Positions 46,491-57,394 of a DNA stretch of 64,000 nt are shown here, one piece after another. The stretch is from assembly GCF_053078305.1 (NCBI RefSeq), contig NZ_CP166879.1; one strand, written 5' to 3'. How positions within the stretch are numbered: the stretch's first letter is position 1; the number at the start of each line of letters is the position of its first letter. The position numbers and the translations under genes were made by a program. Under the pieces are notes generated by a model. It searched no databases. It had not been told where the DNA came from and was given only the letters and a program-made list of their open reading frames with translations.

Positions 46491-46494
46491 GCGC

Positions 46495-46978
<484 letters not shown>

Positions 46979-50868: not shown

Positions 50869-50871
50869 TGC

Positions 50872-50915
50872 GTAAAATGCCGGATGCGGCGCGCCAGCAC
50901 CGCATCCGGTATTAG
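50872..50915. repeat. REP-like palindrome
   Basis: GCCGGATGCGGCGCGCCAGCACCGCATCCGGTA inverted repeat after ettA stop. Confidence 0.55.
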
Positions 50916-51023
50916 TTAAATGATTAGTCCCCGGAAAAAGGCAGAATTTTCTTTTAGTGTATTAGCTCAGATGCGGACTGACATCTCAAATCAAGCGGGA
51001 ACTCATGATTCCCGCTTAACGTT

Positions 51024-51911
51024 CTATTCACCGCGCAGAATCTGGCGGAAATGGGAAACCAACGGACGTTGGTTGGCTTTATGCCAGGCTGCCCATAATT
51101 GCGTTGAATAATTCATCCACGGCAATTCACGTAATACCACCCCTTCCGGCGCATTATGACGCAGACTATGTTGAATTAAGGCCAGACCTAATCCCGCAGC
51201 GACCAGACCTAATGCCGTGAGGGGTTCACCCGCTTCCAGGCGAATATCAGGATTAAACCCGGCGTTAACACAGGCGGCGACAAAATGATCGCGAGAATGC
51301 GCATCGTCGTTATGAATCACCGCAATCCACTGCTCATCGCCAAGTTGTGACGCGACAAGGTTTTCCTCCTGCGCCAGAGGATGATTTTGCGGTAAGGCCA
51401 ACAACATTCGATCATCCAGAACCTGAATATATTCCAGATCCTGCTCGCTGTCGGTGGGCGGCGTATCGACCAGAGAAAAATCGAGACTGCGCTGGCGCAG
51501 GCCTTCAATCTGGGTAGCCGGTGGTTGGCTGTAAAGTGCGATATGCACATTCGGACGCGATACACGTAACGTACGTAGCGCCGTAGAAAGCACACCGGAA
51601 TGCATGGCGTTTTCGATATAGCCAATACACAAGCCACCATCTTCCCCCCGTCCCAGGCGTTTGCCTAACGACTCCAGGCGGTTGGCGTGTGTCAGCAACG
51701 AACGTGTTTCGGCAAGGAATGTCTGTCCATCAGCGGTCAGGCGAATGCGCTGCTGATTACGCTCAAACAGCGTCAGCCCCAGTCGTTCTTCCAGTTGTGC
51801 AATCTGGCGGCTCAGCGGCGATTGCGAGATATGTAATCGCTCGGCTGCGCGTCCCACGTGCTCTTCTTCTGCGACCACCACGAAGTACTTCAGTTGGCGT
51901 AAATCAATCAT
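51024..51911 (-). CDS. LysR-family transcriptional regulator
   Basis: Track ORF 51024..52004; probable start at internal ATG giving MIDLRQLKYFVVVAEEEHVGRAAERLHISQSPLSRQIAQLE (classic LysR HTH); divergent from the oxidoreductase genes. Confidence 0.85.
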   Translation of the reverse strand: MIDLRQLKYFVVVAEEEHVGRAAERLHISQSPLSRQIAQLEERLGLTLFERNQQRIRLTADGQTFLAETRSLLTHANRLESLGKRLGRGEDGGLCIGYIENAMHSGVLSTALRTLRVSRPNVHIALYSQPPATQIEGLRQRSLDFSLVDTPPTDSEQDLEYIQVLDDRMLLALPQNHPLAQEENLVASQLGDEQWIAVIHNDDAHSRDHFVAACVNAGFNPDIRLEAGEPLTALGLVAAGLGLALIQHSLRHNAPEGVVLRELPWMNYSTQLWAAWHKANQRPLVSHFRQILRGE

Positions 51912-52044
51912 GTTAGACCTCAAAGGACTTAAGTCAGACGAATTATGTCCTATCAAGTCACAACCTCGCAAGGTATTGTGATCCACGTCACAGGGCGATA
52001 GCAAAAAAACGCCCTAACCCAAACCGAATAATTGAGGACATCTT

Positions 52045-53055
52045 ATGAGCATTAAAAATTTACTCCCCGGCAAAATTGGCTTAGGCGGCGCACCACTTGG
52101 CAACATGTTCCGTGCCATTCCGGAAGAAGAGGCCCACGCCACCGTGAGCGAAGCCTGGAACCTGGGTGTGCGTTACTTTGATACCGCGCCGCTGTACGGC
52201 TCTGGCCTTTCTGAAATCCGCATGGGTGAAGCGCTGTCTCAGTATCCACGCGATGAATACGTTCTGAGTAGCAAAGTCGGTCGCATCATGCTGGACGAAA
52301 TGGAAGATCCGGCAAAACGGGATTTCGGTGAAAAAGGTGGCCTGTTCGAACACGGCCTGAAAAACAAAATTCTGAATGACTACTCTGCTGACGCCACTCT
52401 GCGCTCGATTGAAGACAGCCTGAAACGCCTGAAAACAGACCGTCTGGATATTGTCTGGATCCACGACCCGGCGCAGGACTTCTACGGTGACAGCTGGCTG
52501 GAGCAGTTCAACATTGCCCGTACCGGTGCATTTCGTGCGCTGACGCGTTTGCGTGACGAAGGTGTGATTAAAGCCTGGGGACTGGGTGTGAACCGCGTCG
52601 AACCTTGCGAACTGACGCTGGCGCTGGACGAACCGAAGCCGGATGCGTTCCTGCTGGCGGGGCGTTATTCCCTGCTGGATCACGAACGTGCGCTGCAACG
52701 CCTGATGCCAGAAGCACTGGAACAGAACGTGGATATCGTTGTGGGCGGTCCATACAGCTCTGGCGTACTGGCAGGCGGCGAGCACTTTGAATATCAGAAA
52801 GCCTCTGCGGCCATCCAGCAGAAAGTGGCGCAAATTAACGCCATTGCCACACGTTTCAATGTGAACGTTAAAGCGGCTGCGCTGCAGTTCGCGCTGGCAA
52901 ACCCGGCCGTTGCAGCGGTTATTCCTGGCTCCAGCCGTCCTGGTCGTATGGCAGAAGATCTGGCTGCACTGAATGCGCCTGTTCCGGCTGAATTCTGGGC
53001 AGAAATGCGCCGTCAAAATCTGGTTGCGGAAAACGCTCCGCTGCCGACCCGTTAA
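52045..53055 (+). CDS. Aldo-keto reductase family oxidoreductase
   Basis: 336-aa ORF with AKR-like GVRYFDTAPLYG and DIVWIHDP motifs; GAGGA ribosome-binding site upstream. Confidence 0.85.
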   Translation: MSIKNLLPGKIGLGGAPLGNMFRAIPEEEAHATVSEAWNLGVRYFDTAPLYGSGLSEIRMGEALSQYPRDEYVLSSKVGRIMLDEMEDPAKRDFGEKGGLFEHGLKNKILNDYSADATLRSIEDSLKRLKTDRLDIVWIHDPAQDFYGDSWLEQFNIARTGAFRALTRLRDEGVIKAWGLGVNRVEPCELTLALDEPKPDAFLLAGRYSLLDHERALQRLMPEALEQNVDIVVGGPYSSGVLAGGEHFEYQKASAAIQQKVAQINAIATRFNVNVKAAALQFALANPAVAAVIPGSSRPGRMAEDLAALNAPVPAEFWAEMRRQNLVAENAPLPTR

Positions 53056-53074
53056 TCAACCAGGTGAGAAAACG

Positions 53075-53872
53075 ATGAAACTGGATCTGACAGGTAAAGT
53101 CGCGGTGGTCAGCGGCTCAACCTCCGGCATTGGGCAGGGTATCGCCGCCGGACTGGCAAAAGCAGGCGCAACGGTGGTTGTCGTCGGCCGTAAACAGAGC
53201 GGCGTTGATGACGCCATGGCTGCGATTGCGGCACAAACTCCCACAGCGTCACTGCGCGGCGTGGTGGCCGATCTCAGCACCGAAGACGGCGTGGCTGCGC
53301 TGATCGCTGCAGTCCCAACGGCTGATGTGCTGGTCAATAATCTGGGCATTTTTAACGATAAAGATTTCTTTAGCGTTCCGGATGATGAGTGGATGCACTT
53401 CTATAACGTCAACGTCCTCTCCGGCGTTCGTCTGGCGCGTCACTATGCGCCAGGCATGACGGAACAGGGCTGGGGGCGGATTATCTTTGTCTCGTCCGAA
53501 TCCGGCGTGGCAATCCCTGGCGACATGATCAACTACGGCGTCACCAAAGCCGCGAATCTGGCGGTTTCTCATGGTCTGGCGAAACGACTGGCGGGGACCG
53601 GTGTGACCGTCAACGCCATTCTGCCAGGGCCAACCTTTACCGATGGCCTGAAAGAGATGCTGGCGGATGCCGCTGCACAATCGGGACGCAGTGCGCGTGA
53701 ACAGGCCGATGAATTTGTTAAAACCTCGCGTCCGAGCTCCATCATCCAGCGTGCGGCAGATGTGGAAGAAGTGGCGAATCTGGCGGTTTATCTCGCGTCA
53801 CCGCTTTCCTCGGCAACCACAGGGGCAGCCCTGCGCGTCGATGGCGGCGTCGTCGACACCCTGACAATGTAA
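53075..53872 (+). CDS. Short-chain dehydrogenase/reductase (SDR) family oxidoreductase
   Basis: Internal start MKLDLTGKVAVVSGSTSGIGQGIA (TGxxxGxG) within track ORF 52973..53872; YGVTKAA catalytic motif; ribosome-binding site present. Confidence 0.85.
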   Translation: MKLDLTGKVAVVSGSTSGIGQGIAAGLAKAGATVVVVGRKQSGVDDAMAAIAAQTPTASLRGVVADLSTEDGVAALIAAVPTADVLVNNLGIFNDKDFFSVPDDEWMHFYNVNVLSGVRLARHYAPGMTEQGWGRIIFVSSESGVAIPGDMINYGVTKAANLAVSHGLAKRLAGTGVTVNAILPGPTFTDGLKEMLADAAAQSGRSAREQADEFVKTSRPSSIIQRAADVEEVANLAVYLASPLSSATTGAALRVDGGVVDTLTM

Positions 53873-53897
53873 CCCTATAAATTAAGAGAAAATTATC

Positions 53898-54314
53898 ATG
53901 GCTAAAACAACTGTATCGATCGAAATTCCGGCTTCTGGCGACGCCGTATGGCAATTGATGGGCGGCTTTGATGCGCTGCCAGACTGGCTACCATTCATCC
54001 CGAAAAGCGTGGTGACAGAAGGCGGTCGCGTTCGTTCGCTGACAACCTCTGACGGCGGCACTGTGGTTGAACGTCTGGAAGCGTTTGATAACCGTCAACG
54101 CAGTTATACCTATTCCATTATTCAGGCACCGTTCCCGGTGGTGGATTACCTCTCCACCATTACCGTTCATGAAACCGCCGACAGCCAGGTTTCCCGTGTG
54201 GAATGGTTCGGTGAATTCACCCCGGTGAATGTGACGAACGAAGAGGCCGAGGCGCTGTTTACCGGCATCTATCGGGATGGACTCAAGGCGCTTAAGGACA
54301 ACTTTGTTGCCTGA
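53898..54314 (+). CDS. Small START/Bet v1-like (SRPBCC-type) protein of unknown function
   Basis: 138-aa ORF 25 nt after the SDR gene; family assignment is tentative. Confidence 0.6.
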   Translation: MAKTTVSIEIPASGDAVWQLMGGFDALPDWLPFIPKSVVTEGGRVRSLTTSDGGTVVERLEAFDNRQRSYTYSIIQAPFPVVDYLSTITVHETADSQVSRVEWFGEFTPVNVTNEEAEALFTGIYRDGLKALKDNFVA

Positions 54315-54471
54315 TGCGATCGACAGGCGTCGGCACGTCCGGCGTCTGATTATTAACAAAAACAGAATAGTCTATTGTCATTTGTATCATTTATGTTATC
54401 AGACAGCAGGCGTATTCTCTCCCCATCGCGTTAATAAACGCCAAACAATTAAGACACTCTGGAATATAAAC

Positions 54472-54684
54472 ATGAAAACGATCATCGCAATTTTTACCGC
54501 TTCTCTTTTCTCTGTCGCGGCGTTTAACGCATCGGCGCAAAGCGTGACAGCAACCGGTACAACACTGGATTCCGCTGAAGCGGTTATTGCGCAGAAAGCG
54601 AAAGAGATGAACGCCTCTGAATACAAAATTACCAGCGCTCGCATGGGCAATACCGTCACCATGAGTGCCGAACTGTATAAATAA
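54472..54684 (+). CDS. Small secreted stress-type protein (YdgH/BhsA/McbA-like, DUF1471)
   Basis: Internal start MKTIIAIFTASLFSVAAFNASAQ (signal peptide) then ...SEYKITSARMGNTVTMSAELYK, characteristic of the family; 70 aa. Confidence 0.7.
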   Translation: MKTIIAIFTASLFSVAAFNASAQSVTATGTTLDSAEAVIAQKAKEMNASEYKITSARMGNTVTMSAELYK

Positions 54685-54732
54685 TCGCGCGAGGAACCCA
54701 TTACGTAATTTGCTAAATATGCGCTGAATGCG

Positions 54733-55039
54733 TTGCCATTAATAAACCGTATTGTACTGCCACCGATGACGCGTTCCCGCGCCGGTGCGGGTGACGTTGC
54801 GATTGGCATGATGGCGGAGTATTACGCGCAGCGCGCCAGTGCTGGACTTATCATCAGCGAAGGTACGCAAATCAGCAGAATCGCTGCGCATAATTTTCCA
54901 CGGCACGCTGATTTACTCCGGTAAATACACCAAAGCGCGCGCCGAACAGGCGCTGGCTAACGGCTGGTCGGATCTGATTGGTTTTGGTCGTCCGTATAGT
55001 GCCAGGAGCGGAAGTTGTCGAAGGGTCATAAAGAGCTAA
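54733..55039 (+). pseudogene. Remnant of an Old Yellow Enzyme-type NADH:flavin oxidoreductase (NemA-like), internally deleted and frameshifted
   Basis: Frame 1 (54733..54924) MPLINRIVLPPMTRSRAG...MAEYYAQRASAGLIISEGTQIS resembles the OYE N-terminus; a second frame (54839..55039) ...GKYTKARAEQALANGWSDLIGFGRPY resembles the OYE C-terminus; the ~300 central residues are missing. Confidence 0.6.
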
Positions 55040-55315
55040 ACCCCGGCATTGCTTCTCAGCTGTTTATAGCCGTTCCTGGGTACAAGTGAGCACTAAGGCG
55101 AGCATTGTTATAATCACCAACCAATCACTAGTTGTGTACAAATTCTGACCGCAAAGCGAACTCTCCGGCATGCAGGTTGGAGAAAGCACAGTTGACCTAA
55201 AATGCTCCTCCAGCCAGAAACAAAAGGTGGCCGATAATTCGAAAGCAAAAAAAGATAAAGCAGGGAATGTGCCCGCAAATTCTTAATCATATAGCCAAAC
55301 CGAGCAGCGTATGAT

Positions 55316-55345
55316 ATCCAGCCCTGATACGGGCTGGATATTAAA
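55316..55345. terminator. Perfect palindromic hairpin
   Basis: ATATCCAGCCC-TGATAC-GGGCTGGATAT followed by TAAATTTTCG; just 3' of the lipoprotein gene stop and at the end of an ORF-free ~300 bp. Confidence 0.4.
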
Positions 55346-55355
55346 TTTTCGCCGG

Positions 55356-55823
55356 TCAGTTATCGCAATGACCTGGCACTGCTAACTTAACTTCAGGTTT
55401 AGAAACGACGCGGATACCTTCGCTTTCGGATACCTGTTCAAGTCCAGCCCCACCAACAAAAACGCCCATTTTGATGTACTGGCGAACAAAGTAGTTTTTC
55501 CCGGACGTGACATTGAGTGTCAGATTATTAGGTGAAAACTCGGATTCAGTTCCCAGCGTATGTGGTTGGCTGGTCGATATTTGCTGATAGAAAAAGACTC
55601 TGTCAGCCGTTTCACCAAGACAACGGCCGTCAAGATAAACATCCTTTTTTAACGCTTTACCAACAAAGCTGTCTCTGTAAACGTATAGACCGGCTTTGCC
55701 ATTTTCCGGGACCGGGAAAGACTTAGCTGTCTCGTTTTCAGCATTACTGCCCAGAGGAACCGACGCACACCCCCCCAGAAGCACTGAGGAAATAATGACT
55801 GCGCCAAATAAAATTTTATTCAT
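55356..55823 (-). CDS. Putative lipoprotein
   Basis: 155-aa ORF with lipobox (VLLGGCAS) after signal peptide. Confidence 0.75.
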   Translation of the reverse strand: MNKILFGAVIISSVLLGGCASVPLGSNAENETAKSFPVPENGKAGLYVYRDSFVGKALKKDVYLDGRCLGETADRVFFYQQISTSQPHTLGTESEFSPNNLTLNVTSGKNYFVRQYIKMGVFVGGAGLEQVSESEGIRVVSKPEVKLAVPGHCDN

Positions 55824-56161
55824 TGAATTCTCATGGAGTTAAGAAAATCGCCAAATGAGAATAAACTTATTTTACACTTATGTCATTAAAGGAGGCATTG
55901 CTTCACAACAACATCAATGTTCATCCCGGAACCGTCCACTTCCGCTTCTCGCTCAAAACGGACTGTCATATTTGATTGCATTCTGGCTACGCAACCGGTC
56001 GGTTGGAGTATGAAGTTGCTCACGAATAGCCTTAGCATCCGCAATTTCGTAGCGGGTCACCCGTACAGGTTCTTTCTAATCTCGACAGCCTCTTCCAGAG
56101 AGGTTTTCAACTCATCAAAAAAACTCATTTTATACCTCGCCTTTGAGCAGTTTCATCACGG

Positions 56162-57394
56162 TTATCTCTGCTCCCCCATCATCTCCCGCACCAGCTCCAC
56201 GCAGCGCAGGAAACGGCTGTCGTAATCTTCCTCTTCAACCCGCACAAATTCGATATTGTTCTCTTCCAGCATCTCCACCAGCAGATTCTGGAACTCTTTA
56301 CGATCCACCGAACTGCCGAGGCTGCGTAAACCATCCGCCACCCACGGCGTGTTGTTCTCCAGCAGGATCACCAGATCGAAACGGTATTCATCAATCAGCG
56401 CCTGCACGAACGGATGTTCCCGCCCTTCGTACTTTTTGCAGAACGCCTGAGTGGTGACAAAATCGGTATCGATAAATGCCACTTTATTGGCATATTTCAC
56501 CGCAAAATCAATGTATTGAGCGTGGCCCAGCGCGATTTTATCGTAGTCAGAATACTGCAATGCGATCTCATCACCGCCGAGGTGTGAAAAGACATAATCG
56601 CGGCCATATTCCCACGCACTGGTGGTGTTGAAGATATTGGCAAGTTTGTTTACCAGGGTGGATTTACCGCTCGACTCGCCGCCAAGGATCGCCACGGTAC
56701 GCACAAAAAACGGCTTCACTTCGGTAGGAATATATTCCCAGTAGCGGAACGGGTTTTCGCGGATCTGCGCACCGCTGATACTCATAAAGGTACGTTTCGG
56801 ATCGACCAGCACCGTCTCGATCCCCAGATGTTCCATATACTGTGGCGCATCGGCTTCTTCCGAGGTGTAGATCAGATCCGGCTGGATCCCTTTTTCAGCC
56901 ATAAACTTTTTGATACCGTTGCTCCACACATCCCAGCCGTGCGGATACGGCTCCATGCCCTCTTCGTTGAAAGCATGAATGCGAATATTTTTCTGATATT
57001 TAAAAGTTTGCAATAACCAGCGCAGACGATCCGGCACGGTCGGCTGCTGCGACATGGCACTGTCTTCGAACAACGCGCGGTCACGGGTATCGTCAAAACC
57101 CATAATGATATGCAGCTCGTCAACCTGGCTACAGGCGCGCTGGATAAGGTAGATATGTCCGGTATGCAGTGGGTAGAACTTACCGAATACGACACCGATC
57201 GTTTTCTTCTGCCGGGGAAACTCAAGCCCCAAAAAACGGTGCAACGCCTCCAGCTTTTGCGCGCTGGGGCTTTTAATTTTGGCATTCAGTAACTGGCTTA
57301 AATACCCTTTGGTCATACCGCTGGCATCAGCTACCTGCTGTAGCGTGCAGCCCTGTTGCTTGATGGCAGTTTTCAGGTAATCAAATGACGACAT
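56162..57394 (-). CDS. nadR: Trifunctional NAD biosynthesis/regulator protein NadR
   Basis: Track ORF 56162..57415; accepted 410-aa NadR starts at MSSFDYLKTAIKQQGCTLQQVADASGMTKGYLSQL. Confidence 0.95.
   Translation of the reverse strand: MSSFDYLKTAIKQQGCTLQQVADASGMTKGYLSQLLNAKIKSPSAQKLEALHRFLGLEFPRQKKTIGVVFGKFYPLHTGHIYLIQRACSQVDELHIIMGFDDTRDRALFEDSAMSQQPTVPDRLRWLLQTFKYQKNIRIHAFNEEGMEPYPHGWDVWSNGIKKFMAEKGIQPDLIYTSEEADAPQYMEHLGIETVLVDPKRTFMSISGAQIRENPFRYWEYIPTEVKPFFVRTVAILGGESSGKSTLVNKLANIFNTTSAWEYGRDYVFSHLGGDEIALQYSDYDKIALGHAQYIDFAVKYANKVAFIDTDFVTTQAFCKKYEGREHPFVQALIDEYRFDLVILLENNTPWVADGLRSLGSSVDRKEFQNLLVEMLEENNIEFVRVEEEDYDSRFLRCVELVREMMGEQR

Follow-up and report, generated by a model that had tools for sequence, protein, structure and literature searches.

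Remnant of an Old Yellow Enzyme gene at the end of a six-gene module in an Escherichia coli accessory island

Identity and extent of the remnant

Two short, overlapping open reading frames close an oxidoreductase gene cluster in the 64-kb stretch of DNA analysed here (the window), and the question they raise is whether they are genes in their own right or, as an earlier note on this DNA had claimed, what is left of an Old Yellow Enzyme (OYE) gene. The ORFs were found exactly as claimed, in adjacent frames of the plus strand, at 54733-54924 (63 aa, TTG start) and 54839-55039 (66 aa, GTG start). The locus belongs to an accessory island, 5.1 kb long, with ettA and nadR on either side, and is preceded by five intact genes. 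The first gene of this module encodes a LysR-type regulator (51024-51911, minus strand), which is annotated in orthologous E. coli loci. It is followed on the plus strand by genes for an aldo/keto reductase (AKR; 52045-53055; Pfam PF00248, E = 8.2e-45), an SDR-family oxidoreductase (53075-53872; Pfam adh_short_C2, E = 3.9e-44), an SRPBCC/polyketide-cyclase-like protein (53898-54314; Pfam PF10604, E = 1.1e-29) and a DUF1471 (YdgH/BhsA/McbA-like) small secreted protein (54472-54684; Pfam PF07338, E = 2.5e-11).

Intact orthologs of the decayed gene, obtained from a scan of genome contigs with one genome per bacterial species, encode proteins of 365-370 aa in Kluyvera, Citrobacter amalonaticus, Pseudocitrobacter, Serratia, Providencia and 'Escherichia coli strain E69' (CP089930.1, locus L003; hereafter E69). 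In E69 the 365-aa OYE is encoded after the same five genes as the remnant. Window 50993-54876 and L003 3285-7168 form an ungapped alignment with 97.8% DNA identity, and window 54877-55004 aligns to L003 7855-7982 at 94.5%. The six-gene module (LysR-AKR-SDR-SRPBCC-DUF1471-OYE) is present in Providencia alcalifaciens too, with ~3 kb inserted before the OYE gene, and the DUF1471-OYE pair is intact in Kluyvera, C. amalonaticus and Pseudocitrobacter, a partnership conserved across genera. Since intact orthologs occur in other genera, the direction of change is loss; the individual lesions were polarised with one very close intact relative (E69) and these more distant genera. The earlier claim that the cluster formerly included an intact OYE gene is therefore upheld by E69, where the module is complete and the upstream proteins are 99-100% identical to those of the window (99% for the LysR regulator).

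The resemblance of the two ORFs to the N- and C-terminus of an OYE, also claimed earlier, was recovered by Pfam, NCBIfam and tblastn alike. Against the Pfam family Oxidored_FMN (PF00724), the N-terminal fragment scored 31.5 bits (E = 1.5e-7; profile positions 12-62 of 342), above the 27-bit cut-off, and the C-terminal fragment scored 15.1 bits (E = 0.014; positions 282-325 of 342), which is under it. Both fragments also matched the NCBIfam N-ethylmaleimide reductase subfamily NF007899 (N-terminal fragment, E = 1.2e-14, positions 11-66 of 365; C-terminal fragment, E = 1.1e-5, positions 288-336 of 365). For tblastn against the whole window, the intact E69 ortholog was used as the query in place of the NemA suggested earlier. 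Two matches were obtained, one for each fragment: residues 3-59 in frame +1 (89% identity, E = 5.6e-27) and residues 275-337 in frame +2 (67% identity, E = 2.2e-20). No further match appeared in the window even at E <= 10, and the missing OYE core is therefore not located elsewhere in it. A protein search with the joined fragments returned only proteins of at most 155 aa and no full-length relative. Two relatives of 125 aa (P0003 and P0006) were considered as cases of repeated inactivation and set aside, as their frame breaks exactly at an A6 run (GGCTGGAAAAAAGT) and sequencing errors are likely.

Alignment to the intact E69 gene places the homologous DNA at 54703-55004 (302 bp), beginning 30 bp before and finishing 35 bp before the limits of the span first proposed (54733-55039). 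The N-terminal part (54703-54876, plus strand; L003 6995-7168) corresponds to ancestral codons 1-58, and the C-terminal part (54877-55004, plus strand), which is in a different frame, to ancestral codons 288-330. Where a complete OYE has a PF00724 (beta/alpha)8 barrel of ~340 profile positions in a single frame, the remnant has two pieces in two frames, and it has no translatable gene with start codon, open frame and native stop. Three features that mark a pseudogene are present, namely an intact ortholog in the same neighbourhood, disabling lesions and relaxed selection, and nothing arguing for a function of the remnant was found in the analysis. With high confidence, we regard 54703-55004 as the non-functional remnant of a gene for a SYE1-like FMN-dependent NAD(P)H alkene reductase, formerly the last gene of the six-gene module.

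Lesions and loss of constraint

Four independent lesions were read from a base-by-base alignment and codon comparison with the intact 365-codon E69 gene (L003). The ancestral start codon has changed from ATG to ACG (54703-54705), and codon 2 from TTA to the stop TAA (54706-54708). The third lesion is a clean internal deletion of 686 bp (L003 7169-7854, codons 59-287), which has no counterpart in the window and whose junction falls between 54876 and 54877; as 686 leaves a remainder of 2 on division by 3, the deletion is itself the frameshift. Finally, homology to the intact gene ceases at 55004 (codon 330), and the last 110 bp (codons 331-365 and the stop) are gone. An internal deletion with frameshift had been proposed earlier and is confirmed, but the missing core amounts to ~229 residues (686 bp, codons 59-287) and not the ~300 residues then estimated.

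Most of the TIM barrel was lost with the 686-bp deletion. In OYE1 and in PETN reductase, the roles of the active-site His/Asn (or His/His) pair and of Tyr as proton donor have been established for H191/N194/Y196 and H181/H184/Y186, respectively. The HGANGY motif of the E69 protein begins at residue 183, and its His183, Asn186 and Tyr188, the counterparts of these catalytic residues, are encoded within the deleted codons 59-287, leaving the remnant without them.

The earlier note had suggested aligning the deletion endpoints and looking there for short direct repeats. The endpoints could be located (L003 7169-7854), but no direct repeat or microhomology was found at them, the intact gene reading ...ATCAGC|CAGCAG...TTTAA|AGAAGC... 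across the two sites. An origin in two steps, in which a 4-bp slip came first and a 682-bp deletion at an 'AG' second, is possible but found no support.

Selection was compared as the ratio of synonymous to nonsynonymous changes among codons at which the window departs from E69. Pooled, the five neighbours gave 63 synonymous to 5 nonsynonymous, made up of the LysR regulator (20:2), the aldo/keto reductase (22:0), the SDR oxidoreductase (10:0), the SRPBCC protein (7:2) and the DUF1471 gene (4:1). In the remnant the ratio is 2:12 (Fisher p = 6e-9 against the neighbours; p = 1e-7 without the two start-region lesions), with 8 nucleotide differences in the N-terminal part (1 synonymous, 7 nonsynonymous) and 6 differing codons in the C-terminal part (1 synonymous, 5 nonsynonymous). 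Among six E. coli alleles, 7.0% of sites in the remnant are segregating and the mean pairwise difference is 3.2%, about twice the 2.6-4.2% and 1.0-1.7% seen in the neighbours, and further lesions were seen in the remnants of these alleles, namely a deletion of 6 bp and a stop created by TGG>TAG. Purifying selection thus no longer acts on the remnant, whereas it still constrains the five upstream genes.

These data also bear on whether one or both of the short ORFs might encode functional small proteins derived from the ends of the OYE. Both are open in the window, and gene callers and RefSeq enter such ORFs as 'hypothetical protein' or 'oxidoreductase': the 63-aa ORF is deposited publicly under the former name (P0013), as is a one-residue variant of the 66-aa ORF (P0018), and an ORF similar to the latter is named 'oxidoreductase' in RefSeq (WP_024195856.1). 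However, 12 of the 14 differing codons are nonsynonymous, and in other strains the ORFs are broken by the 6-bp deletion, by TGG>TAG, which interrupts the 66-aa ORF, and by a deletion that removes half of this second ORF in ~440 genomes. Their TTG and GTG starts have no Shine-Dalgarno-like sequence upstream, and most of the barrel is missing from the fragments, as is every catalytic residue. A protein-coding role is therefore very unlikely, and the 63-aa and 66-aa ORFs are most likely spurious gene calls. Under the pseudogene reading, the remnant would make no enzyme and the two ORFs would be by-products of its lesions.

Distribution of the remnant and the variable slot beside it

The distribution of the remnant was surveyed in 5,426 complete RefSeq E. 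coli genomes and, elsewhere, in one genome per species. In 482 of the 5,426 genomes it was matched as one piece across the junction, and the same junction is present in loci L001, L002 and L082-L084. The deleted 686-bp segment was detected in none of the 5,426, and no intact copy was found among them. The finding of the same junction in all 482 genomes and of the 686 bp in none indicates that the lesions are shared and arose once; all four would have arisen before the present E. coli island alleles diverged. The same survey disposes of an assembly or sequencing artefact, in which an intact gene had been collapsed or mis-joined. This reading, for which no support was found, is refuted by independent assemblies, as the junction is identical in 482 independent complete genomes and recurs in 24 or more additional NCBI contigs arranged like the window, and we give it practically no credence.

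Decay of the pseudogene probably went on after the shared lesions, through the 6-bp deletion and TGG>TAG in some strains and a larger deletion in most. The full 302-bp remnant is kept in only ~41 of the 482 genomes, 20 with a GNAT gene and 21 with a wHTH regulator and a TauE exporter downstream. The other ~440 carry a shorter remnant that ends at remnant position 244-247, where a further deletion of ~1 kb joins ...GCGCGCCGAAG to CG(A/G)ACTGTCAG... beside nadR, with CGAAG microhomology at the junction (loci L086 and L087, around 5238-5245). This deletion is the equivalent of window 54947-55955 and took the rest of the remnant, any cargo, the repeat motifs and everything up to the nadS remnant. 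No genome of the complete set shows the arrangement of the window, in which a DUF2846 lipoprotein gene lies downstream; this arrangement is found in 24 or more other NCBI contigs, CP057673.1 among them.

With no intact copy in 5,426 complete genomes, loss of the OYE may predate the spread of the island in E. coli. As read from ORFs and BLAST, the E69 module lies beside pitA-yhiN and not at ettA-nadR, and the core flank of E69 is only 93.5% identical to E. coli, so that E69 probably belongs to another Escherichia species. The contrast between 97.8% identity for the module and 93.5% for the core flank suggests that the module moves horizontally. One further reading, which concerns timing and is compatible with that of a pseudogene, is that the OYE gene was never intact at E. 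coli ettA-nadR, the island having arrived with the gene already broken in a donor lineage. It is in keeping with the shared junction in all 482 island-bearing genomes, the absence of the deleted 686 bp from the 5,426, the different site (pitA-yhiN) of the only close intact copy and the higher identity of the island than of the core flank. On the other side, the survey was limited to complete genomes in RefSeq and to a single genome for each species, and a draft Escherichia genome could hold an intact copy at ettA-nadR. We consider arrival in the broken state plausible, but hold it only tentatively.

The 3' end of the remnant coincides with the left edge of a strain-variable slot. A short motif feature (55005-55017, without strand; AGCGGAAGTT at 55007-55016) directly follows the truncated end of the OYE, and an inverted copy of the motif lies at 55937-55946. 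In loci of the wHTH/TauE type (L002, L082-L084) both sides carry the 11-mer AAGCGGAAGTT without a mismatch, the slot boundaries being flanked by the inverted 11-nt repeat AAGCGGAAGTT / AACTTCCGCTT. In E69 a single copy of the motif is present, 455 bp downstream of the intact OYE gene.

The slot itself (~55005-55937) has the OYE remnant on one side and the nadS remnant on the other. In the window its cargo is the DUF2846 lipoprotein gene (55356-55823, minus strand), which none of the 5,426 complete E. coli chromosomes carries, the only match, of 71.6%, being on a small plasmid; between the same two boundaries, other strains carry a GNAT acetyltransferase gene (20 genomes) or the wHTH regulator and TauE exporter genes (21 genomes). 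The three cargo segments share no homology except at their edges. Whether the slot genes natively lie downstream of OYE in other genera was tested, and they do not. A placement of the right-hand repeat within the helix-turn-helix part of a longer nadS found no support, the NCBIfam model for NadS having matched at positions 1-44 of 94 only.

Downstream of the intact OYE gene in E69, an apparent C-terminal fragment of a LysR regulator was noticed by eye (ORF 8261-8392 of L003), the single AACTTCCGCTT motif lies at 8547-8557, and farther on the opposite strand carries a gene for a 1,718-aa helicase-like protein. The whole of this right flank (8093-8560 and 8859-14015) had no match in any complete E. 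coli genome. The inverted repeats might mark a site of site-specific exchange, as opposed to old rearrangements spread by homologous recombination in the flanks. We regard such exchange as unlikely. If it were true, the slot boundary would be an undescribed small recombination site, and the OYE gene would have lost its 3' end in the same event.

Several observations concern the island and its edges. In strains that lack the island, such as E. coli A30, to which the nadR-radA-serB stretch of the window is 99.4% identical, nothing but REP elements and a short nadS gene is present between ettA and nadR. Two or three REP elements occupy the gap from ettA to nadS in these strains, and in the window further copies are found at 32400-32507 and 46493-46639. 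The island's left edge, at ~50894 (50870-50910; locus L085 8694-8860), falls inside a REP-like hairpin just after ettA. In the window nadS (~55953-56128, minus strand) is itself a pseudogene, with a 10-nt deletion relative to A30 that shifts the frame and brings in a stop after 23 codons; it is recognisable only at positions 1-44 of the 94-position NadS model, whereas the nadS of A30 is cut short instead by REP elements. In the interval 54300-56200 no Rfam family was matched, and promoter-like and terminator-like sites showed no excess over shuffled sequence. A 2,144-bp contig labelled as a metagenome-assembled Collinsella sp. (JAIJJM010000574.1, L017) carries the SDR, SRPBCC and DUF1471 genes and the OYE remnant with 99-100% protein identity to the E. 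coli island; almost certainly, this is E. coli DNA that contaminates the metagenome bin of an actinobacterium.

Comparison with public annotation and known enzymes

The pseudogene status of the locus is already known from public annotation. At the same position after the DUF1471 gene, for instance in NZ_CM128601.1 and NZ_CP082357.1, RefSeq (PGAP) records an 'alkene reductase; incomplete; partial in the middle of a contig; missing C-terminus'. PGAP flags only the N-terminal piece, with the C-terminal ORF often labelled 'hypothetical protein' or 'oxidoreductase', and identifies neither the deletion nor the intact ortholog; in many E. coli annotations the two ORFs should be merged into one pseudogene. 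A literature search returned no description of the island or of the OYE pseudogene. The remnant is an ordinary pseudogene, a product of gene decay that is not new in kind, and it carries little biological weight: it is a textbook case of stepwise decay in an accessory island whose other genes stay under selection. The intact E69 gene supplies the ancestral sequence for testing what the complete six-gene module does. Judging by the families of its members, the module may have a role in detoxifying or reducing reactive carbonyls or enones.

The description of the lost gene as 'NemA-type' in the earlier note holds for the class, in that both fragments match NF007899, but not for orthology. The intact ortholog shares its class of bacterial OYEs with the NemA and PETN reductase of Enterobacteriaceae, whose structures score ~335-345 bits against it, ~120 bits under SYE1. 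The intact E69 ortholog scores 396.4 bits against NF007899, just below the curated 403-bit cut-off; this score and the lower scores against NemA and PETN reductase indicate a paralogous OYE lineage and not a nemA ortholog. The closest solved relative is Shewanella oneidensis SYE1 (PDB 2GOU/4AWS), which aligns with the intact ortholog end to end over residues 2-364 (464 bits, E = 2.8e-138), and by sequence similarity the ancestral enzyme is closer to SYE1 than to NemA. SYE1 has the HxxNGY motif in common with the intact ortholog, and the N- and C-terminal segments in common with what survives in the remnant. Compared to SYE1, the window retains only codons 1-58 and 288-330, with the start codon lost and the two parts in different frames, so that no enzyme would be made from it.
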